From an uncultured Gemmatimonadales bacterium (lineage in GTDB: Bacteria > Gemmatimonadota > Gemmatimonadetes > Gemmatimonadales > GWC2-71-9), in contig CAVZZO010000001.1 of the NCBI GenBank assembly GCA_963779755.1, forward strand, positions 672,001 through 736,000: a DNA stretch of 64,000 nt, written 5' to 3'. Below the pieces are notes generated by a model. That model was not told where the DNA came from. It ran no database searches and saw only the letters and a program-made list of their open reading frames with translations. Positions 1,340-46,456 of this stretch are shown one piece after another; within the stretch, counting starts at the first letter, position 1, and every line of letters begins with the position of its first letter. The translations under genes were made by a program, and so were the position numbers.

Positions 1340-1651
1340 GCCTGACGGCCTGCCCTCAGCGGCAGCAGCCTGATCGGTTCAACCAGCGAAGGCTGCCGCC
1401 CCGGCAGCTGGAAGCGCAGGTAGGGGGGGCTGAGCGCCCGCTGGGTTGCAGGGCCGACGAAGCCCAGGGTGGCGAGATCATACCCGGAAGCAACGGCGTG
1501 GCCGAACCTACGTGAACGGGGAACGTGCGGGCATAGGCAGACTTTTCGTCGGGGGTCATGGCGCGGCTCCGGGTGGAGGGAATCACAGGAGTCGCGGAAG
1601 GAGCTACGGGCCGCGCAGCGGCGTCAAGCGGGTATAGATGTCTAGTTAGGC
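1340..1651 (-). other. attC site interrupted by mini-IS110 element; R' degenerate (GTCAGGC)
   Basis: R'' GCCTAAC at 1645-1651; the rest (CTGCG CTTCCAGC...GCTGAGG...GTCAGGC) resumes at 1419-1340. Confidence 0.7.
1420..1644 (-). mobile_element. Non-autonomous ~225-bp IS110 derivative (MITE-like)
   Basis: 1507-1644 matches the left end of the IS110 at 14651-14788; ends in CCTAC like the full element. Confidence 0.75.
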
Positions 1652-4752: not shown

Positions 4753-4839
4753 ACTATCGACTCCTCCTTGACTCAACGGGCGTTGGCGGCGATTCCCGAT
4801 GGTTCGCAAAAGAACGATCGCAAGGAAGGCTATTCCGCA

Positions 4840-4880
4840 GGCTAACGCAGATTGGACCTGCAGGAACCACGTCCCCCCCA
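4840..4880 (-). other. attI site of integron B
   Basis: GTTAGCC core; flank (attggacctgc...gaaatt.atctta...cacaacat) homologous to the attI region at 18718-18806. Confidence 0.75.
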
Positions 4881-6005: not shown

Positions 6006-6159
6006 GGGGGGAAATATAGGGTTTGTGTCGGTTCCTGTCCCGCTTAGGGCCGGAGAAAGAGCACGCCGTCATTGCGAGGGCGCGCAGCGCCCGTGGCAAT
6101 CCCACCGCTTCCGGCGGGGAGCTCCCCACCTCACCGCTTGCTCCTCACGCTCACCGCCG

Positions 6160-6940
6160 ACCTAACCCCCTGTCCCCCTTCCCTGTTGGGAAGGGGGGAC
6201 CGGGACGACCAGTTCGAAGAGAAGGGGGAACCGGGACGGCCGATGTAAAAGAGGCTGTCACCCTGAGGCCGCGCCAGCGGCTGAAGGGGCCGAAGCTGGA
6301 GGATGGCTTCGGTCCCTTCGCTGCGCTCAGGGTGACAACCCCCTGTCCCCCTTCCCTGTTGGAAAGGGGGGACCGGGACGGGCGGTGCGAAAGGGCTGTC
6401 ACCCTGAGGCCGCATCAGCGGCCGAAGGGGCCGAAGCTGGAGGATGGCTTCGGTCCCTTCGCTGCGCTCAGGGTGACCTAACCCCCTGTCCCCCTTCCCT
6501 GTTGGGAAGGGGGGACCGGGACGACCAGTTCGAAGAGAAGGGGGAACCGGGACGGCCGGTGTAAAAGAGGCTGTCACCCTGAGGCCGCACGTGCGGCCGA
6601 AGGGGCCGAAGCTGGAGGATGGCTTCGGTCCCTTCGCTGCGCTCAGGGTGACCTAACCCCCTGTCCCCCTTCCCTGTTGGGAAGGGGGAACCGGGACGGC
6701 CGGTGCGAAAGGGCTGTCACCCTGAGGCCGCATCAGCGGCCGAAGGGGCCGAAGCTGAAGGACGGTTTCGGTCCCTTCGCTGCGCTCAGGGTGACCTAAC
6801 CCCCTGTCCCCCTTCCCTGTTGGGAAGGGGGAACCGGGACGGCCGGTGTAAAAGAGGCTGTCACCCTGAGGCCGCACGTGCGGCCGAAGGGGCCGAAGTT
6901 GAAGGATGGTTTTCGGCCCCTTCGCTGCGCTCAGGGTGAC
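6160..6940. repeat. Tandem array of ~5 composite palindromic (REP-like) units, ~140-175 bp
   Basis: TGTCACCCTGAG...CTCAGGGTGAC alternating with CCCCTTCCCTGTTGGGAAGGGG hairpins. Confidence 0.9.
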
Positions 6941-6999
6941 ATTACGCGCGCCGCCGGCGCTCATTGCCCGGGCGCGAGAGACACCCAGCGCCGCGATCC

Positions 7000-8027: not shown

Positions 8028-8400
8028 GCTCAGGGTGACCTGACCCCCCTGTCGCCCCTTCCCTGTCGGGAAGGGGGAACCGGCGCCGGAAACCCCGTCG
8101 TCCCGAACCCCGCGAGCAACGCGAGCGGGTGAGGGACCTGATGCGCGTGTCTGGAGGGCCGGCCACAGCGTTCCGGGTGCCTTGCCTGGCGTCCGAAGCG
8201 CGTGAAGCATATCCCTCTCTCGCTGCGCTCGCTCGGGATGACAGGCGCCCTTGAGCCAAGGGAGGGAGCCGCCTTGCGGCGGGGGCCACGCTTCGCTTGT
8301 CACCCTGAGGCCGCGCAAGCGCCCGAAGGGGCCGATGCTGAAGGCATGATTTCGGCCCCTTCGCTGCGCTCAGGGTGACATTACGCGCGGGCGCCGGCGC
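8028..8400. repeat. Degenerate copies of the 6160-6940 REP-like units
   Basis: ctcagggtgacc, cccttccctgtcgggaagggg, gtcaccctgagg...ctcagggtgaca. Confidence 0.75.
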
Positions 8401-8855: not shown

Positions 8856-9146
8856 CTATTCCACGGGGCCGATGCTCGCCCGACGCCCATGGATCACAGC
8901 CAACACGGTCACGACGTCGGCTTGTGGCCGATAGATGATGCGATAGGATAGCTCGAGCAGCTCGCGAAGATCAGAATTGGAGCGTTCGGGAACTGGTCGG
9001 CCGACATTGGGAAAGTCTCGCAGTTGACCGGCCCGGCGGACGAGTCGGTGCACTGTGAGGTTGGCATATAGAGGAGAGGTCAGGGCAATGTAGGCCCGAA
9101 TGGCCTCCAGATGGGCTTGGGCCGTCTCAGTCCAGAGGAGCCTCAC
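8856..9146 (-). CDS. RelE/ParE family toxin
   Basis: WTETAQAHLEAIRAYI...FPNVGRPVPE...LRELLELSYRIIY...LAVIHGRR. Confidence 0.92.
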   Translation of the reverse strand: MRLLWTETAQAHLEAIRAYIALTSPLYANLTVHRLVRRAGQLRDFPNVGRPVPERSNSDLRELLELSYRIIYRPQADVVTVLAVIHGRRASIGPVE

Positions 9147-11306: not shown

Positions 11307-11410
11307 GCCTAACGAAATGCGTTTCAGCCGCGAAGGCGCGGCCCTAGCGCCCGGAGGGCTTTTTTGAGCGGGTGCGCCGCGCCTTCGCCGTCTGCAAACG
11401 CTTGTTAGGC
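11307..11410 (-). other. attC site (104 bp)
   Basis: GCCTAAC-AAGCG-TTTGCAGA...GCTGAAA-CGCATTTC-GTTAGGC. Confidence 0.9.
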
Positions 11411-11709
11411 CTCCCGGCCAGCCGGCTCCGGCGACGTTCGGTCTCGACCCGATCGGCAAGGTACACCTTGAGCAGACTCTGATAGGGGACATCCCGCTCG
11501 TTGGCGAGCAACTTGAGCTCGGTAAGCAGGGTATCGGGCAGCCGGACCGAAATGGCTGTGGACGAAGGCCGGAGATGGGGAAAGCGCATCACCCGTGCCT
11601 TCGACCAATCCACATATTCGGTCGAGTCATGCGTGGCCCAGAAGTCGCGCTCCTCGTCCTCAGTCCGGAAGGTCGGGATGTTCTTCAATGCTCGCTTGGG
11701 CTTGGGCAT
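11344..11709 (-). CDS. BrnA-like antitoxin (RHH/CopG), C-terminus reads into attC
   Basis: IPTFRTEDEERDFWATHDSTEY...AISVRLP...DVPYQSLLK. Confidence 0.88.
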   Translation of the reverse strand: MPKPKRALKNIPTFRTEDEERDFWATHDSTEYVDWSKARVMRFPHLRPSSTAISVRLPDTLLTELKLLANERDVPYQSLLKVYLADRVETERRRSRLAGRPNKRLQTAKARRTRSKKPSGR

Positions 11710-12013
11710 ACTGGTGCCGCTCCTTCCGATTCATGTCCCGGGCCGCGATCACGCGAATCAGAGATCCGCGCACCGTGAAGACGAGGTAGAGCCTCCGGTT
11801 CGCGAGGGTCCGGCCGAGCGCTTGCCACCGGAGCTCGGTGCCGGAGTGCTTCGCATCGAATGCGGCGACCAGAGGTTCCTGAAAGAACGCCTGTTCGCAC
11901 TCCCCCGGCTCCACGTTGTGGCGCGCCAGCACTTTGGGCGCGTTGCCGGCGTCCCATTCAAAGCCGGTGCAGCGGCCCAGAATCGCGTAGGCGTCCGGCG
12001 GCTCTCCCGTCAC
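11660..12013 (-). CDS. BrnT family toxin
   Basis: FEWDAGNAPK...H..ECEQAF...RWQALGRT...VFTVRG..IRVIAAR. Confidence 0.92.
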   Translation of the reverse strand: MTGEPPDAYAILGRCTGFEWDAGNAPKVLARHNVEPGECEQAFFQEPLVAAFDAKHSGTELRWQALGRTLANRRLYLVFTVRGSLIRVIAARDMNRKERHQYAQAQASIEEHPDLPD

Positions 12014-12071: not shown

Positions 12072-12203
12072 GCCTAACGAAGTGCGCGTCAGCTGCAGCG
12101 CGATGCTTTAGGTCTTCACAAACTACGCTTCCTTAGCCGCGCCGCTAGGAACTCCGGATGATGCGACCGGCCCGCGCGACTGGCCTGCCAGCTGGACGCG
12201 CTC
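12072..12203 (-). other. attC lacking its R'' box (R'' displaced to 14789-14795)
   Basis: GAGCG-CGTCCAGC...GCTGACG-CGCACTTC-GTTAGGC; homologous to the attC at 16001-16140. Confidence 0.85.
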
Positions 12204-12658
12204 ATGTACGCGGATCCTTTCGGGCTGCTTGCCCAGGATTGTTGTATCGAAACGGGGGATTGGCGAAAGGATAACCTGCTTCACCCTGCTGTTACAGCGG
12301 CAAGAGAGACAACCCGATGCTGGGAGTAGCTGTGGGTCTCCTGGCCGTTGCAGGTGGGGCCGAACTGGCTGCTCCCAGGTTATTTGCCGCGGCCACCGCT
12401 GCTCTTCCTAAGGTACCGTTTGAGAAATTCCAGGACTGGGGACGAAATGTTGTCCAATGGGGCCGTGGGGCAGCGGGGGCAATTCAGCGGGTTTCTGAAG
12501 TGACGGCCGAGCAGGCCTCTAAATTGGATCCACAGAAAGTGAAGATGGCTCGCGACTTCTACCAGAAAGCTGTTGATGCTGGCCGAGGGGGAGCCGCCGC
12601 ACCTGAACGAGTAAAGCTGATGGAACGCATTTTAGACCTGCAGCAGAGAACCCATTAG
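12204..12658 (+). CDS. Orphan Rhs C-terminal toxin tip (DUF4951-like), one apparent frameshift
   Basis: Starts MYADPFGL (Rhs DPxGL); removing 2 nt in the GA repeat at ~12305 joins ORF 12317-12658 (WGRG..GA..R...RDFY...ER..LM.RI). Confidence 0.65.
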
Positions 12659-12705
12659 TGGCTCGGTCCGGTCTATTCGAGCATTGCAACACGGAGGAAG
12701 AGCCA

Positions 12706-12953
12706 TGCTGGAAGCAGCGGTCACACTTCGGCTTACGAATAGATGCGAAACTGCGCGGAAGCTCGTGATTGAGCCATGGACCACCGAGTTTCGACTGCAA
12801 CCTGGGCACACTTACGACTTGGTGATATCAGGGGACCTTGGCCTCCCCTTAGAGGTTGAGTTCGAGGACGACGAACTAACCGTATACACTTTCGATTCCG
12901 CCAATGCCTCCTTCAAGATTTCCGAAGGCGGGGCTGAACTTAAACCACTGTAG
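12706..12953 (+). CDS. Putative immunity protein
   Basis: 82-aa acidic ORF directly after the toxin tip, GGAGG upstream; its stop codon lies in the IS end. Confidence 0.55.
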
Positions 12954-13437
12954 GAGCCCGGCCCTGTCTAGCCTGGGGCGCTCGGGGCGCCTCCGGGTTG
13001 TCGGGCCTGAACTCCGAGGGGTCGGGTCTAGTAGGAGCCTCGCGGGCTGCCGCGCGTGGCGGACCTCGGCCGGCGGAAAAGGAAAGTGGTGGGGGCCCCA
13101 CGAGTTCAGCGGAACCCATCGGCTCCAGACCTGCCGCGAGCCGGCTCCCTCGTCGGGCGTCATGCGCCCACGGGAGCAGACGGGGTCACCCCACCGGCTC
13201 CAAGGTGCTACCCGGTCCTTCGATTGTCAAAGAGCGCCGCGTTCCGCGTGCCGGCGGGATCCTGGCACCACCCTCATAGGTCGTTGAGGCTCGGGGCCTC
13301 CCACATCTTCATGGATGCTCTCCGATCCGCGGCCGGGCGGCCAGCAACTCTGTGCGCGGAACTCACCGAAGACGCCGGCGGCTCAAGGCAAATAGAGGGC
13401 GGCCCGGCGCGCACGCGCGGCTCCCCCCGGTCTCCGA
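12950..13437 (-). ncRNA. Putative bridge/seek RNA region (exact boundaries unknown)
   Basis: Non-coding end contains the donor-junction 14-mer (13026-13039) and candidate target guides (13277-13283, 13232-13237). Confidence 0.65.
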
Positions 13438-14703
13438 CTATTCGATCACCACCGGCTCTGCGTGATGCCGCTGGGTCTCCCAGCGCTCCCGGTCGAACGG
13501 CTGGCCCGACTGGAGCACGGCCAGGAGGAGCGGCACCAGCTTGCGGGCCACCGCGCAGACCGCCTTGGTCCGGAGCCCGCCATTGCGGGCCAGCAGGGCC
13601 TGGTAGACCCCGGTACAGCCCCCGGGGCTGGCACCAGCGGCCGCCGAGCAGAAAGAGTTGGCGGCGCAGCAACGGCCGGCCCCGTTTGGACTGCTTGCGC
13701 CGGCCCTGCACCGTGCCGCTGGAGCGCTCGACCAGATTCATGCCTGCGAGTTTCAGCACCTGGCGGGGATGAGTGAAGCGCTCCGGAGCGCCCAGCTCGG
13801 CCACGATCGTGGCCGCACAGGTGGCGCTCACCTCGGGAATGGTGGTCAGCGCCTTGGCCGCGGGGCACTGCTCCACCGAGCGCGGCGATCTGCTGGTCCA
13901 CCTCCGCGAGTTGCGCCCGCAGCAGGTCCCAGCGGGCCAGCAGCTGCTGGATCTCCAGCGCCGCTCGGGAGCGGCGCCGGCCAGGGCGACACTGGTGCGG
14001 GCGGACTCGCGCAGGACGTGGAGCTGCCCTGGGCTCACGTGGCCCCGCGAGACGGACCGCGCCAGGCGAGTCACCGCGGCCGGGGCGGCCGCCAGGAAGT
14101 CCTGCGGCAGCGGCCAGCGCGCCAGCAGGGCGCGCGGCGTGGGCTTGCGCACCTGCGAGAAGTGCGTCAGGAACTCGGGCCAGGCCAGGTCGAGCAGGCT
14201 CTGGAGACGGTTCTTGAACCGGGTTTCCTCGACGGTGAGCCGATGACGGTGGGTGGTGAGCAGCCGCAGCTCGAGATACGGGGGCTGCAGCGCCGGATAT
14301 CCCACGAAGATCCCCAGGCTCACCAGCTTGCAGATCTCGGCGGCATCCTTCGCGTCCGTCTTGTTGGGGCTGTTATCCTCCAGTTCCTTGGCCCGCTTGG
14401 TGTGGGCCGGCAGGATATTGACCAGCGCATAGCCGCGCGCCCGCAGGCACTCGGCAAACGTGAAGCCGTGATGGCCGGCGAACTCCAGCCCCACCAGCAT
14501 CTGGCCGGGCCGGATGCCGGGAAACCAGGCCGTCAACTGCGCGCGGCGGCCTCGAAGCCCGCGCGGCTCACCGGCACTCGGACCGGCTTCGTGCGGCGCC
14601 CATCGGGGCCCTGAGCAACCAGCACGTGGACCCGCTTCGCGGTATCCACGCCTACGTGAACGGGGAACGTGCGGGCATAGGCAGACTTTTCGTCGGGGGT
14701 CAT
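13438..14703 (-). CDS. IS110 family recombinase/transposase (about 4 apparent frameshifts)
   Basis: VGVDTAK, VGLEF, NKTDAKDA (DEDD); LTTIPEVS; LAGMNLVERSSG; SKRGRPLLR; AVARKL. Confidence 0.92.
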
Positions 14704-14789
14704 GGCGCGGCTCCGGGTGGAGGGAATCACAGGAGTCGCGGAAGGAGCTACGGGCCGCGCAGCGGCGTCAAGCGGGTATAGATGTCTAG

Positions 14790-15530
14790 TTAGGTAGCAC
14801 CACGAATCAGACGGCGGCCGTGAGGAGTGAGTTCCGCGTGTCTGACGCTCCCAATCTGGTAGTCCCCGGGACCTCCTGTGGTAATGATTCCGAGGTCTTT
14901 CAAGCCGCGCAAGATCAGATCAAGTCGCGCAACCGGGATGCCCGTCACCTCAAGCACCGTGGTCGTGTGAAGTCGGTACTGGTCTGGCGTCAGGGTGCGG
15001 AACTGGGCAAGTACCGCAGCCACCTCGGCGGCCGAGTCCACATCTGGGAGTAGCGACGGAGCAAGGGCGATGTATGTGCCAGGCACGAGGCGCGTTCGCG
15101 CGATTCCGACAGCGTGATTCAAGTCTGGATCAATACGAATGAAGCCGAAATCGCGAAGATCCTCCGCTGCCTCCAAGTACTCATGCGGCGAAACATCCAA
15201 ATCGGTAATGGCATCCTCTGCTTCAGCAAACTGGAACAGCTGGCTGGCCTCGCGATAGAGGCAGTAGGCCAGCAACCGCAGGGGCGTACCAGAAAGGCGG
15301 ACGAATGGAACTTGAATTGCTTCGAGCGCGGTCACGCGCTCTTCGAGACTGCCAACCCGGACACCGAGTTTCGATACCTGCTCATTCGCTACGCCGTAGC
15401 CGCCCAGGGCGGCAAGACGCGCTACCAAGGACGCCACGCCCGAAATCGGCTCGACAACCAAGGCCACGCCAGTGAGTGTCCACGCAGCGATGGTCGGCCA
15501 ATCGAGGCTCGAATCCTTTGCTGAGGTCAT
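14790..15530 (-). CDS. Hypothetical protein (hydrophobic N-terminus, possible winged-helix domains)
   Basis: MTSAKDSS... 246 aa, GAGG RBS, stop inside R'' ACCTAAC. Confidence 0.8.
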   Translation of the reverse strand: MTSAKDSSLDWPTIAAWTLTGVALVVEPISGVASLVARLAALGGYGVANEQVSKLGVRVGSLEERVTALEAIQVPFVRLSGTPLRLLAYCLYREASQLFQFAEAEDAITDLDVSPHEYLEAAEDLRDFGFIRIDPDLNHAVGIARTRLVPGTYIALAPSLLPDVDSAAEVAAVLAQFRTLTPDQYRLHTTTVLEVTGIPVARLDLILRGLKDLGIITTGGPGDYQIGSVRHAELTPHGRRLIRGAT

Positions 15531-16140: not shown

Positions 16141-17228
16141 CCCGCGGATTCATATACTAAGTGCAACAACGGAAGGCGACGAAAGCGGTGATCTGACAGC
16201 AAGTAGACTTCTCTGTCCGCCAAGACAAGGAAGCCGACCATGAACTACCGCCAGATCACCGCCGCTGAACGGTACACCCTCGGCCTGCTTCGCCGACAGG
16301 GGCTGACGGCGGCAGCCATCGCGCGCCTCCTCGGTCGCCACCGCAGCACCATCGGCCGCGAGGTCCGGCGCAACCGCACCCACCACGACGGGGGCTACCG
16401 CCCCCAGCTCGCCGACTGGTACGCGCGGGGCCGGCGGAGCCACTCGCGCCGCAACACCCGGTTCACCGCCACGGATTGGGCGGAGGTGGAACGCCTGGTG
16501 CGCGAGGACTGGAGCCCCGAACAGATCGCCGGCCGCCTCGCCGCGGACGGACACCTCGCCATCAGTCACGAGACGATCTATCGGTACGTCTGGGCGGACC
16601 GCGCGGACGGCGGCACGCTCTACCAGCACCTCCGCGGCGCCCGCAAGCAGCGCCGCAAACGGTACGGGCGCTACGACAGCCGGGGCCGCCTGGCCGGGAA
16701 GCGGATGATCACGGAGCGGCCTGCGATCATCGAAGGCCGCAGCCAGGTCGGTCACTGGGAAGGCGACACCGTCCTCGGCGCGGGACAGGCCGGCCCCTGC
16801 GTGCTGACGCTGGTGGAACGGAAGACCGGCTATCTGATGCTCGGCCAACTCCACCAGCGGACGACCACCGCCGTCACGCGCCGGGCGACCCAGCTGATTC
16901 ATCGGGAAGCTCGCCCGGTGCGCACCATCACCGTGGACAACGGCACCGAGTTCCATGACTACGCGGCGATCGAACGGGAGACCGCCACGCGCTTCTACTT
17001 CGCCACGCCGCACCACAGCTGGGAGCGCGGAACCAACGAGAACACCAACGGCCTGCTGCGGCAGTACCTCCCGAAAGGCCACTCTATGGCGCACCTCACC
17101 CAGGCCGCGTGTGATCGCCTCGCCCGCAAACTCAACCGCCGACCCCGGAAGCGCCTCCTCTACCGCACCCCGGAGGAATGCTATGCACGATGAGGCTCAG
17201 TGTTGCACTACAAACTTGATATCAGACG
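16141..17228 (+). mobile_element. IS30 family insertion sequence
   Basis: Imperfect IRs ...TCATATACTAAGTGCAACA / TCAAGTTTGTAGTGCAACA; GC (or GGC) direct repeat. Confidence 0.88.
16240..17193 (+). CDS. IS30 family transposase
   Basis: WSPEQIAG, ISHETIY, GHWEGD, TVDNGTEF, WERGTNENTNGLLRQYLPKG. Confidence 0.97.
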   Translation: MNYRQITAAERYTLGLLRRQGLTAAAIARLLGRHRSTIGREVRRNRTHHDGGYRPQLADWYARGRRSHSRRNTRFTATDWAEVERLVREDWSPEQIAGRLAADGHLAISHETIYRYVWADRADGGTLYQHLRGARKQRRKRYGRYDSRGRLAGKRMITERPAIIEGRSQVGHWEGDTVLGAGQAGPCVLTLVERKTGYLMLGQLHQRTTTAVTRRATQLIHREARPVRTITVDNGTEFHDYAAIERETATRFYFATPHHSWERGTNENTNGLLRQYLPKGHSMAHLTQAACDRLARKLNRRPRKRLLYRTPEECYAR

Positions 17229-17807: not shown

Positions 17808-17949
17808 GCCTAACGGTCTGCGTTTCAGCGGCGGCGCGATGCCCCGCTCCCTCATAATCCTACGCTTCCTTACCGCGACCGCTAGATGTCCGAGCAATGC
17901 ACCAGCGGCCTGCAGCACCGTGCCCGGCCGCTGCAAACGCTTGTTAGCT
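17808..17949 (-). other. attC site (142 bp)
   Basis: AGCTAAC-AAGCG-TTTGCAGC...GCTGAAA-CGCAGACC-GTTAGGC. Confidence 0.92.
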
Positions 17950-18723
17950 GCCGGCCGCAATGACATTCTCGGTTGCGATGACGCTGCCGGCAGGTGCGGA
18001 GTCCCCACCCCGGGAGGCCCGGCCGCCCCCTCGGAGCTCCGGCGGGGCGGAAGATCGCTGGACGCTTGTCCACCGGGAACGACGCTGACCCTGCCCCGAC
18101 CGCCCCGCGGGGAGGGGCCCCGGGCGGCATGGCGGAGCCTGCCAGACGACCCGCGCAAGGAGGCCGGTGCCGCCTCACCTCCGCCAACCAGCTGAGGAAC
18201 TCCGGCGGCACCACCAGGAGCCCACCAAAAGATCAGCACTGGGAGGCCCGGCTGGCGCGTGCAGCTAACGGTCTGCGTTTCAGCGGCGGCGCGATGCCCC
18301 GCTCCCTCATAATCCTACGCTTCCTTACCGCGACCGCTAGATGTCCGAGCAATGCACCAGCGGCCTGCAGCACCGTGCCCGGCCGCTGCAAACGCTTGTT
18401 AGCTGCCGGCCGCAATGACATTCTCGGTTGCGATGACGCTGCCGGCAGGTGCGGAGTCCCCACCCCGGGAGGCCCGGCCGCCCCCTCGGAGCTCCGGCGG
18501 GGCGGAAGATCGCTGGACGCTTGTCCACCGGGAACGACGCTGACCCTGCCCCGACCGCCCCGCGGGGAGGGGCCCCGGGCGGCATGGCGGAGCCTGCCAG
18601 ACGACCCGCGCAAGGAGGCCGGTGCCGCCTCACCTCCGCCAACCAGCTGAGGAACTCCGGCGGCACCACCAGGAGCCCACCAAAAGATCAGCACTGGGAG
18701 GCCCGGCTGGCGCGTGCAGCTAA
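17814..18723 (-). repeat. Two tandem, apparently identical 455-bp gene-less cassettes
   Basis: Period 455 (17808 vs 18263); no credible ORF. Confidence 0.9.
18263..18404 (-). other. attC site (142 bp)
   Basis: Same as 17808-17949; R' GTTAGCT. Confidence 0.92.
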
Positions 18724-18760
18724 CAAATATTGGACCTGCGTACCTCCCATTGAACTCCCG
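18718..18760 (-). other. attI site of integron A
   Basis: CAGGTCCAATATTT-GTTAGCT; cassette homology stops at the GTT; no attC hairpin upstream. Confidence 0.8.
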
Positions 18761-18775
18761 ACCAACCAGAAATTC

Positions 18776-18804
18776 ATCTTACGGTCCGCAGTCTAATTCC
18801 ACAA
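18776..18804 (-). promoter_or_regulatory. Putative Pc promoter
   Basis: TTGTGG-17 bp-TAAGAT pointing to attI. Confidence 0.65.
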
Positions 18805-18806
18805 CA

Positions 18807-19784
18807 TCACCCCGTCTGGCCCAGCAGGTCCGCGGGACTCCGTACCCCCAGGCCGCCCCGGTTCAGGACATGGGTGTAGATCATCGTGGTCGAGACATCC
18901 CGGTGGCCCAGGAGCTCCTGTACGGTCCGGATGTCGTAGCCCGCCTCCAGCAGATGCGTGGCAAAGCTGTGCCGCAGGGTGTGACAGGTCGCCCGTTTGC
19001 CGATACCGCTGGCCCGCACCGCCTCCGCCATGGCCCGCTGCACTGCGGTCTCGTGGTAGTGATGCCGGCGCAGCTGCCCCGAGGCCGCGTGACGATGCCG
19101 CCGCCGAGCCGGAAAAACCCACTGCCAGGGCCAGGAGCATCCCGCTCGCGGATACTTCCGCTCCAGGCCATCGGGGAGCTCGACCCAGCCCGCCCCCTCA
19201 GCCAGATCCCGCCGGTGCCGCTCCCGCACCCGCTCCAGGTGGAGATGCAACGGCTGACGCACCGACTGCGCCAGGACGGTGACCCGATCCTTGGCGCCTT
19301 TGCCTCGGCGCAGCCGTATCTCCCCCCGTTCCAGGTCCAGATCCTTGACCCGCAAGGTGAGGCACTCAAGCAGCCGCAGGCCACTGCCATAGAGCAGGGC
19401 GGCTACCAGCGCCGAGACGCCACGCAGGTGTGCCAGTACGCTCCGGACTTCTCCCGGCGTCAGCACGACCGGCAGGCGCACCGGAGCCTTCGGCCGGGGA
19501 ATGCTCCCCATGTCCACCAATGGCCGCTCCAGGACCTCGGAGAAAAGGAACGAGAGGGCCGCCTGCGCCTGCGCCTGAGTTGAGGCGGAAACGTGCCGCT
19601 CGATGCGCAGATCGGCCAGGAATTGGAGTACTTCTTCCCGCCCCAGTTCCGCCGGAGGACGGAGGCCGTGAAACCGCACAAACCGCCGAACCCAGCCCAC
19701 GTAGGCCTCCTCGGTCCGCGGGCTGAAGTGCCGTAGCCGCAGGTTGAGCCGCAGGGCCTGCAGCAGTTTCGGTTTGGACTGCAT
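18807..19784 (-). CDS. intI: Integron integrase
   Basis: [16 protein letters not shown], IntI-specific [14 protein letters not shown]...[29 protein letters not shown]. Confidence 0.97.
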
Positions 19785-19892
19785 GAGAGTATCCCCGCGG
19801 AAATCCACAAGCTTGATCCGCGACGCCTTTCCACCCGTACCCCGCCAATGCCGAGAGGACCGAAAACGCCCGCGAACTCCTCCCTTGTGTAT

Positions 19893-19918
19893 CGAACAGT
19901 TGTTTTATACGTTTGTTC
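19893..19918. promoter_or_regulatory. Two putative LexA boxes (GAAC-N4-GTTC type) over the intI promoter
   Basis: CGAACAGTTGTTT and ATACGTTTGTTC overlapping a minus-strand TATAAA. Confidence 0.55.
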
Positions 19919-45017: not shown

Positions 45018-46456
45018 TCCACAGATTTCACAGATTGCGCAGATTGGCTCGGTGCGCTTGCGGCGCTTCGCCAAGGCCTGCCAGTATCCCCAGAAGAAAC
45101 TCGTTGTCTTTGTTGGGAGCGCAGGGCAACGCTCCATACGCCTGGTTCCCGGGCGTCGTGGCGCGGGGAAGGCTACCGGATCACGGGGGAACCGCAGATT
45201 ACGCAGATGTACGCAGATTTGGCTCCGTTCGCCTGCAGCGATCCGCCAAGCCTCGCCTCACGCCAACAAAACAGAAGATTCGTTGTTTGCTGGGAGCGCA
45301 GGCAAGGCTCCATGGAGCTGCGCCGACAGACGAGGCAATCTGCGTACATCTGCGTTCAATCTGCGTAATCTGTGTTCCCCCTCCGGGAACCCAGCCGTGC
45401 AAGGAGCCCGGGACGTAACCGACGCTTCGCCCTGGTTGGCCGACCTGGCCGATTGATTGAGACCGCAGATTACGCAGATTACGCAGATTTGGCTCCGTTC
45501 GCCTGCAGCGCTCCGCCAAGCCTCGCCTCACGCCAACAAAACAGAAGATTCGTTGTTTGCTGGGAGCGCGGGCAACGCTCCATGGAGCTGCGCCGGCAGA
45601 CGAGGCAATCTGCGTACATCTGCGTTCAATCTGCGTAATCTGTGTTCCCCCTCCGGGAACCCAGCCGTGCAAGGAGCCCGGGACGTAACCGACGCTTCGC
45701 CCTGGTTGGCCGACCTGGCCGATTGATTGAGTCCACAGATTTCACAGATTACGCAGTTTTGGCTCGGTTTGCCTGCAGCGATCCGCCAGGCCTCACCTCA
45801 CGCCAACAAAACAGAAGATTCGTTGTTTGCTGGGAGCGCAGGCAACGCCCCATGGAGCTGCGCCGGCAGACGAGGCAATCTGCGTACATCTGCGTTCAAT
45901 CTGCGTAATCTGTGTTCCCCCTCCGGGAACCCAGCCGTGCAAGGAGCCCGGGACGTAACCGACGCTTCGCCCTGGTTGGCCGACCTGGCCGATTGATTGA
46001 GTCCACAGATTTCACAGATTACGCAGTTTTGGCTCGGTTTGCCTCAAGCGATCCGCCAAGCCTCACCTCACGCCAACAAAACAGAAGATTCGTTGTTTGC
46101 TGGGAGCGCAGGCAACGCCCCATGGAGCTGCGCCGACAGACAGGGCAATCTGTGTACATCTGCGTTCAATCTGCGTAATCTGTGTTCCCCCTCCGGGAAC
46201 CCAGCCGTGCAAGGAGCCCGAGACGTAACCGACGCTTCGCCCTGGTTGGCCGACCTGGCCGATTGATTGAGTCCACAGATTTCACAGATTACGCAGTTTT
46301 GGCTCGGTTTGCCTGCAGCGATCCGCCAAGCCTCGCCTCACGCCAACAAAACAGAAGATTCGTTGTTTGCTGGGAGCGCAGGCAACGCCCCATGGAGCTG
46401 CGCCGGCAGACGAGGCAATCTGCGTACATCTGCGTTCAATCTGCGTAATCTGCGGT
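45018..46456. repeat. Tandem array of 270-bp units with ACGCAGATT inverted arms
   Basis: gattgattga at 45451, 45721, 45991, 46261. Confidence 0.95.

Follow-up and report, generated by a model that had tools for sequence, protein, structure and literature searches.

Members of the IS1111-attC group (ISPa21, ISPst6, ISKpn4, and ISPa25) insert near the 5′ end of attC sites, antisense to the gene cassettes (PMC3001079, PMC11187229). In Pseudomonas putida, the MITEPpu9/ssr9 module of ISPpu9 lacks a transposase, is present in several copies, and forms minicircles that have been detected experimentally (PMC12288879). In expanded IS110 loci, cargo is flanked by the IS core on one side and an alternative right end on the other, and the ends are recognized flexibly (Hu et al., 10.64898/2026.08.14.744561); flexible “half-match” ends have been reported for IS110 elements (10.64898/2026.08.14.744561, 10.64898/2026.08.31.748434). 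In Rhs and CDI systems, a new tip is joined at a DPxGL motif and the old tip lies downstream as an orphan (PMC3150448, PMC3967940). Here, we compare with these systems a 225-bp insert in an integron attC and a larger IS110-family unit, referred to below as the large copy, that occupies a second attC.

The window, as we call the whole stretch of 64,000 nucleotides that was analyzed (67% G+C), contains an integron whose cassette run goes leftwards from attI, its open reading frames (ORFs) lying mostly on the minus strand. The two features that anchor it are as follows:

18807 to 19904, minus strand: integron integrase gene of the tyrosine-recombinase type (Pfam Phage_integrase and Phage_int_SAM_4).
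About 18719 to 18727, left of the integrase gene: attI-like junction, placed from the sequence.

All seven intact attCs of the array (at 2986, 9397, 11307, 15547, 16002, 17808, and 18263) have, when read on the plus strand, a CTAAC box first and GTTAG last. The unpaired extra bases of the attCs are on their plus strand, which makes the minus strand the cassette (top) strand. The integrase gene (region 18727-19904) points in the same direction as the cassettes, and its stop precedes attI by ∼80 bases, an arrangement of the “inverted” integron type; beside attI, an ORF-poor 455-bp cassette occurs twice in tandem (17810-18719; 300 bases at 100% identity). Within the array, at 16240-17193 on the plus strand, is a transposase gene of IS30-like type (HTH_38 and rve domains), and toxin-antitoxin cassettes are found at 8856-9146 (ParE) and 11344-12013 (BrnT with a CopG-type antitoxin). 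At 4822-4865, GGCTAAC followed by ATTGGACCTGC forms a second attI-like stretch, similar to the junction at 18719-18745, that may mark a second, integrase-less array on the left. Five to six tandem palindromic units of 143 to 175 bp, each reading GTCACCCTGAG ... CTCAGGGTGAC and then CTAAC, occupy 6159-6950 and 8038-8389 and may be attC-like or REP-like repeats. Away from the array, after multihaem cytochrome genes, BLAST seeds that recur each 270 bases at 45289-46382 (45289, 45829, 46099, and 46369) suggest a tandem repeat.

The 225-bp insert parts the first box of an attC from the rest of the site, and the region is made up as follows:

1645 to 1651, minus strand (the cassette strand): first box of the target attC, GCCTAAC, severed from the rest of the site.
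1420 to 1644, minus strand: the 225-bp insert, delimited by junctions, alignment, and folds.
1507 to 1644, minus strand: fragment of an IS left end, comprising an 85-nt leader, an ATG at 1559, and codons 1 to 17 plus two bases.
1420 to 1506, minus strand: 87 bases ending, on that strand, in CCCCCCCTAC, with no match found anywhere searched.
1340 to 1419, minus strand: rest of the target attC, with the partner box GCCTGAC at 1340-1346, recognized by alignment and folds.

No bases are duplicated at the junctions, so the register of the insert is defined to ±1 base, with 1419-1643 equally possible. The original prediction held that 1507-1644 repeats the left end of an IS110 element at 14651-14788, directly after GCCTAAC, and that GTAGG and CCTAC bound the 87 bases; all of this was confirmed. 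By BLAST within the window, 1507-1650 and 14651-14794 are identical at 144 of 144 bases, a match that comprises the 138-base left end and its GTTAGG flank. A separate repeat listing (family D9) gives 99% identity across 149 bases for this repeat, and with the 261-base query the second-best hits in the window span only 15 to 16 bases, which leaves the left-end identity far above chance. The shared left end, which is of IS110-family type, starts with TAGACATCTAT on the minus strand, reaches its ATG at 1559 in the insert and at 14703 in the large copy, and breaks off two bases into codon 18 of the transposase gene. It directly follows CCTAAC in both cases, within GCCTAAC at 1651-1645 in the insert and ACCTAAC at 14795-14789 in the large copy, so that each copy joins an attC at the identical base beside the CCTAAC box, and in the same orientation. 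GTAGG stands at 1420-1424 and CCTAC at 1507-1511.

A false join within the 144-base repeat would be in keeping with a sequence that is probably a metagenome-assembled genome (MAG) or draft genome and in which the large copy's transposase gene has four frame changes. Such a join alters one flank only, however, and cannot produce the join of codon 18 to the 87 bases; furthermore, the flank in question is exactly the box complementary to 1340-1346. Indel errors are not frequent, given that three other ORFs of the window, of 700 to 985 codons, run without interruption, and we regard an assembly artifact as very improbable.

The insert contains neither a transposase gene nor the structured 3′ RNA of the family, and therefore it is unable to move by itself. 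No promoter or terminator was found in a scan of 1150-1750, and searches of Rfam at the gathering threshold and at E values up to 1 returned no family in the window, the element, or the insert.

Excision of 1420-1644 had been predicted to restore an attC, a claim that stands for the hairpin, the boxes, and their spacing and is weak on the sequence profile and the fold score. The stretch 1340-1419 aligns with intact attCs as far as two bases before GTTAG. Joined to 1645-1651, it gives an 87-nt hairpin (−20.4 kcal/mol) whose terminal boxes pair at 5 of 7 positions and in which GCGC and GTTAGG are 2 nt apart, as in intact attCs; this hairpin closes only with the insert removed. Against a sequence profile of six intact attCs, the joined site scores 4.5 bits (E of 2, not significant), and its fold z score is only −1.07. 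An excision scan by minimum free energy was uninformative, as longer GC-rich joins always fold lower. We therefore call the site attC-like on the strength of its boxes, its hairpin, and the cassette ORF that it follows. The integrase can probably no longer excise the cassette at 1666-2046.

The nonsignificant profile score would also suit a history with no bounded insert, in which GTAGGGG (1420-1426) would be the degenerate last box of the attC and the 87 bases ordinary DNA downstream of it, brought by a deletion next to a truncated IS left end that stands on the box of another, lost attC. GTAGG does resemble GTTAGG minus one T, but GTAGGGG pairs at 0 of 7 terminal positions, where GTTAGGC pairs at 5, and the GTTAG common to all intact attCs of the array is missing from it. 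GCCTGAC at 1340 is, in addition, complementary to GTTAGGC but for one G-T pair. We consider this history improbable and retain the reading of a bounded insert.

The large copy interrupts its attC at the equivalent position, with the following parts:

14789 to 14795, minus strand: first box of the interrupted attC, ACCTAAC, abutting the left end.
12204 to 14788, minus strand: inserted unit of 2,585 bp, comprising the left end, a transposase pseudogene, ∼490 nt of noncoding sequence, and a 750-bp module.
13438 to 14703, minus strand: transposase gene of the IS110 family (Pfam), its frame changed four times in comparison with the intact 422-aa relative P0003.
13215 to 13437, minus strand: family-conserved structured RNA in the 3′ noncoding part, a candidate guide RNA, decayed here.
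12950 to 13038, minus strand: GCTCCTAC twice, 81 bases apart, the first copy followed by TAGAC to give the 10-mer CCTACTAGAC.
12204 to 12953, plus strand: module with an RHS-type start, YADPFGL (D codon at 12213), and ORFs at 12317-12658 (DUF4951) and 12705-12953.
12072 to 12203, minus strand: remainder of the interrupted attC (attC profile).

The limits of the unit (again ±1 base) follow from the two halves of one attC that flank it. The stretch 12072-12203 matches positions 1 to 111 of the 119 in the attC profile (42.6 bits) and stops exactly where the last box is due; joined to 14789-14795, it reaches profile position 118 with 50.6 bits (E of 1e-14), a fold z score of −2.65, and 6 of 7 box pairs, while the boxes of the unjoined sequence stay unpaired in the single-strand fold. 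The target of the large copy is an attC. Beyond the right junction, both hit attCs have GCGC(T/G)TCCAGCTG, which is absent from the seven intact, unhit attCs. A comparison over 29 bases finds the two hit sites alike at 22 positions, versus 13 to 21 with unhit sites, a weak excess only.

The transposase gene of the large copy matches DEDD_Tnp_IS110 (PF01548, 8.8e-17) and Transposase_20 (PF02371, 5.9e-16). Its intact relative P0003 scores 197 bits against NF033542 (cutoff, 140) and is 90% identical to the resident transposase, a figure lowered by out-of-frame stretches. The frame changes lie near 14542, 13967-13990, 13876-13900, and 13608; because the three long ORFs elsewhere in the window are intact, they are probably real and not general assembly noise, although they could include errors particular to repeated elements. 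With these four changes, the resident copy is unable to supply transposase. Intact 422-aa transposases that are 96 to 98% identical to P0003 are encoded on other contigs of 1.82, 0.71, and 0.02 Mb. The large copy has no end-to-end inverted repeat and no duplicated bases at its junctions, and the combination of DEDD and Transposase_20 domains with the lack of terminal inverted repeats and of a multibase target duplication places it in the IS110 family.

Directly after the transposase stop, the first ∼230 nt have 39 predicted RNA pairs, 17 of them with compensatory changes, in a comparison of the window copy with seven related loci (L001, L003, L004, L006, L007, L008, and L010). The window copy keeps 26 of the 39 pairs and the other seven sequences keep 35 to 39. 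A k-mer scan of the noncoding regions for guide-target matches found only a 9-mer to the large-copy flank, with ∼0.1 estimated by chance, and this was set aside. The AC core proposed for these insertions was not supported when the copies were compared: AC flanks the 225-bp insert on both sides, but the large copy would need a 4-nt spacer pairing worse than the 2-nt one, and no dinucleotide is common to the two junctions of the relatives. Two other candidates were rejected, a CT core that fits the 225-bp insert and not the large copy and an AG core that fits the large copy and not the insert.

Like the IS1111-attC group, the large copy has a DEDD-type IS110/IS1111 transposase, both window copies sit near the 5′ end of an attC, and the gene is followed by a long noncoding region, the position at which those elements encode a seekRNA. 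Unlike the members of that group, which are antisense (PMC3001079), the window transposase gene runs in the direction of the cassettes, on the minus strand. The 11- to 13-bp subterminal inverted repeats of the IS1111 family are not found near the ends of either window copy (seed 6, minimum 8). The window unit also carries a module, and relatives of its lineage sit in RHS genes rather than in attCs. By tblastn, the best identity to plasmid-borne IS110-family genes is 31% (166 records, all <60%). The same base of two different attCs has been hit by a lineage that is unrelated to the plasmid-borne attC group and inserts in the opposite orientation, and we suggest from this that attC targeting arose independently in the window lineage.

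We compared 10 related loci (L001 to L010), all from Gemmatimonadota MAGs other than the window's own genome; the transposase relatives that carry a name are all from Gemmatimonadetes or Gemmatimonadales. The left-end word GACATCTAT occurs in seven of the 10 and is absent from L002, L003, and L007, the last two of which share another left end. In L010, at oriented positions 700-730 (∼codon 140 of the transposase gene), there is a stretch like the element's own left end (GACATCTAT..CTCGA..GAGCTCC). Targeting of attC, which the original prediction took to be supported, holds for the two independent window hits, at the same base of two attCs, and is not supported as a family trait. Tabulating the flanks of the left ends showed that six of the seven loci with a defined left end and flank (L001, L005, L007, L008, L009, and L010, the miss being L003) abut an RHS DPxGL coding site, not an attC. 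On the opposite strand, the neighboring codons belong to an RHS-type tip and read x-[FYL]-x-D-P-x-G-L, with 9 to 12 bases between the left end and the D codon.

A second DPxGL motif lies 1.2 to 1.8 kb past the transposase stop in all seven loci with enough downstream sequence and in the window (in L006 it reads DAFGL). The NCBIfam RHS repeat-associated core domain ends exactly at this motif in six of the seven downstream ORFs, L003 giving no hit, and in L001 and L006 the downstream ORF continues for >600 codons of RHS core. A non-RHS location for L003 was entertained and dropped, since its right flank is the decayed end of an RHS core. When left and right flanks are joined, an uninterrupted, in-frame core end plus displaced tip results in all four loci where both flanks are present, directly in L001, L008, and L010 and with a 2-base overlap in L007; L003 has no left motif, the contigs of L004 and L006 start at the left end, and those of L005 and L009 end inside the gene. 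Over 1,977 nt (left end, gene, and noncoding region), L003 and L007 are 89% identical; beyond this, their modules of 930 to 1,000 nt are unrelated, and the two become alike again for 45 nt at the motif. A profile of the DPxGL end scores 17.3 bits at 12205-12236 in the window, where the next best site scores 7.5.

From these sequence comparisons, the inserting unit appears to include the tip module, with the DPxGL-coding stretch as its right end. Gemmatimonadota members of this IS family (L001, L007, L008, and L010, and also L003 to L006 and L009) appear to carry RHS toxin tips, to sit in frame inside RHS genes, and to displace the old tip. As in Rhs C-terminal displacement, the new tip stands at DPxGL and the old tip is left as an orphan; unlike what is given in the accessible literature on that process, the new and old tips are separated here by an IS110-family element whose boundaries fall at the swap point. 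A literature search, by titles and the first parts of abstracts, found no paper that links IS110 with Rhs tip displacement. The cargo of expanded IS110 loci is mostly plasmid DNA and resistance genes, the text nowhere using the word “toxin” (10.64898/2026.08.14.744561), whereas the cargo of the family described here is an RHS tip.

This right end bears directly on the 87 bases of the small insert, which had been said to end in CCTAC like the full element. The CCTAC sequences of the large copy, on the minus strand at 13035-13031 and 12954-12950 (GTAGG on the plus strand), each lie within GCTCCTAC and are internal; the unit ends at 12204, and the DNA past 12950 is the end of a plus-strand ORF, not an attC. 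Neither does the claimed loose resemblance of the 87 bases to the right end hold up: local alignments to the noncoding end of the large copy, the noncoding regions of L001 and L008, and the module end gave z scores of −0.6 to 1.85, the best of them, to the noncoding end, being equaled by 20 of 300 shuffles and not significant. With the 87 bases as a BLAST query, neither the window nor the 10 related loci gave a hit below an E of 0.29, blastn of the 261-base region against plasmids found no match, and the DPxGL right-end profile found no match on the insert (score of −21.5). Derivation from the element at 14788, as first supposed, is not supported; a simple internal deletion of the copy at 12204-14788 was rejected because the 87 bases are absent from that copy, whose true right end at 12204 differs.

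The right tip of the small insert, CCTAC, followed by its left tip, TAGAC, makes the 10-mer CCTACTAGAC; counting both strands, the window has this 10-mer a single time, inside the noncoding region of the large copy. There, the first GCTCCTAC with TAGAC resembles a head-to-tail junction of element ends. The longer tip CCCCTAC agrees with 6 of the last 7 bases of GCTCCTAC, which stands twice at the noncoding end. CCTAC is plausible as a genuine end sequence of the IS lineage, judged from these five bases, for which base composition gives an estimated ∼2.6 chance occurrences in 2,585 bases against the two seen. Both ends of the parent are retained in a MITE; here, the left end is kept at 138 of 138 bases and, on the right, CCTAC only, matching an internal site of the large copy.

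We judge the 225 bp to be a non-autonomous derivative whose junctions the IS recombinase made: the left junction is that of the large copy, base for base, and past the right junction the remainder of the attC is intact. The original prediction of a non-autonomous derivative moved in trans is upheld in that the unit is IS derived and without a transposase; its movement in trans is not supported, a single copy having been found across the window, the 10 related loci, and a protein search. In that search, no protein of 36 to 118 aa shares three 5-residue words with the read-through ORF of the insert.

Our tentative preference, held at somewhat less than even strength, is decay in place of a full-length sibling copy at this attC. 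The source would be a copy of the window's IS110-family element that entered the attC by its own site-specific recombination. A complete sibling with its own variable right-hand module would have inserted, and its interior would then have been deleted in place, from codon 18 to 87 bases before the sibling's right end. This route is favored because it needs fewer actors and because the lineage is visibly decaying in the window, with its frame-shifted gene and eroded RNA. Since the right-hand modules of the family vary, as in L003 and L007, the last 87 bases of a sibling need not match the resident copy. The 144-base identity that runs into the flank, the shared junction base next to CCTAAC, the right flank that continues as an attC with the GCGC(T/G)TCCAGCTG of the other hit site, and the lack of a further copy in the scope searched are all consistent with it. 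Against it, we know of no sibling element with these 87 bases, and their end is unlike a DPxGL right end (−21.5 bits, versus 17.3 in the resident copy). The CCTAC-TAGAC 10-mer fits a unit that the recombinase processed as such, and so fits mobilization equally, and a left end that is 100% identical argues for recent events, with little time for decay.

Mobilization in trans, by which the 225-bp unit would have been excised and inserted by the transposase and guide RNA of an intact copy, is a possibility we take seriously but find slightly less likely than decay in place. In that case, the 87 bases could be foreign DNA, trapped with a truncated left end on one side and a surrogate right end on the other. 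Both junctions are exact, the tip shares its 6 of 7 bases with GCTCCTAC and its 10-mer with a unique site in the large copy, and intact transposases exist on other large contigs; MITEPpu9 of ISPpu9 and the half-match ends of IS110, as far as the available texts describe them, provide precedents. The single copy, a right end that shares just 5 to 6 bases with the large copy at about the number of sites expected by chance, and the inability of the resident copy to supply transposase argue the other way.

Like MITEPpu9, as described in the available text (PMC12288879), the insert is a transposase-less unit with boxes like IS110-family ends that would depend on an element's transposase. Unlike MITEPpu9, for which that text gives several copies and minicircles, it is known from sequence alone and in one copy, and while the boxes of MITEPpu9 are said there to resemble both IS ends, the insert shares the left end and 5 to 6 right-tip bases only. 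The smallest expanded IS110 elements keep their recombinase (∼800 bp), and a recombinase-less 225-bp unit is not described in the accessible part of that report (10.64898/2026.08.14.744561).

Taken jointly, the observations may reflect an undescribed Gemmatimonadota class of IS110-family elements of the guide-RNA type, whose cargo would be an RHS toxin tip with a downstream gene and whose right end would be the DPxGL-coding stretch. Insertion in an RHS gene would fuse the core in frame to the new tip and leave the old tip orphaned beside the left end; the window copy would have landed in an attC instead, and the 225-bp insert would be a derivative without cargo or transposase at a second attC. 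We are evenly divided on whether this reading is correct as a whole.

Taken alone, the 225-bp insert makes a modest case, as attC-hitting IS110-family elements and one MITE-like IS110 derivative are already known. The nature of the large copy and its IS family is the more unusual result, and this by-product may matter more than the insert itself: elements that seem to bring in RHS toxin tips in frame came to light when the large copy's true right end was checked. If this holds up, the origin of orphan Rhs tips would be directly testable, RNA-guided recombinases would have a new kind of cargo, and the long-observed C-terminal displacement of Rhs toxins would have a mechanism.
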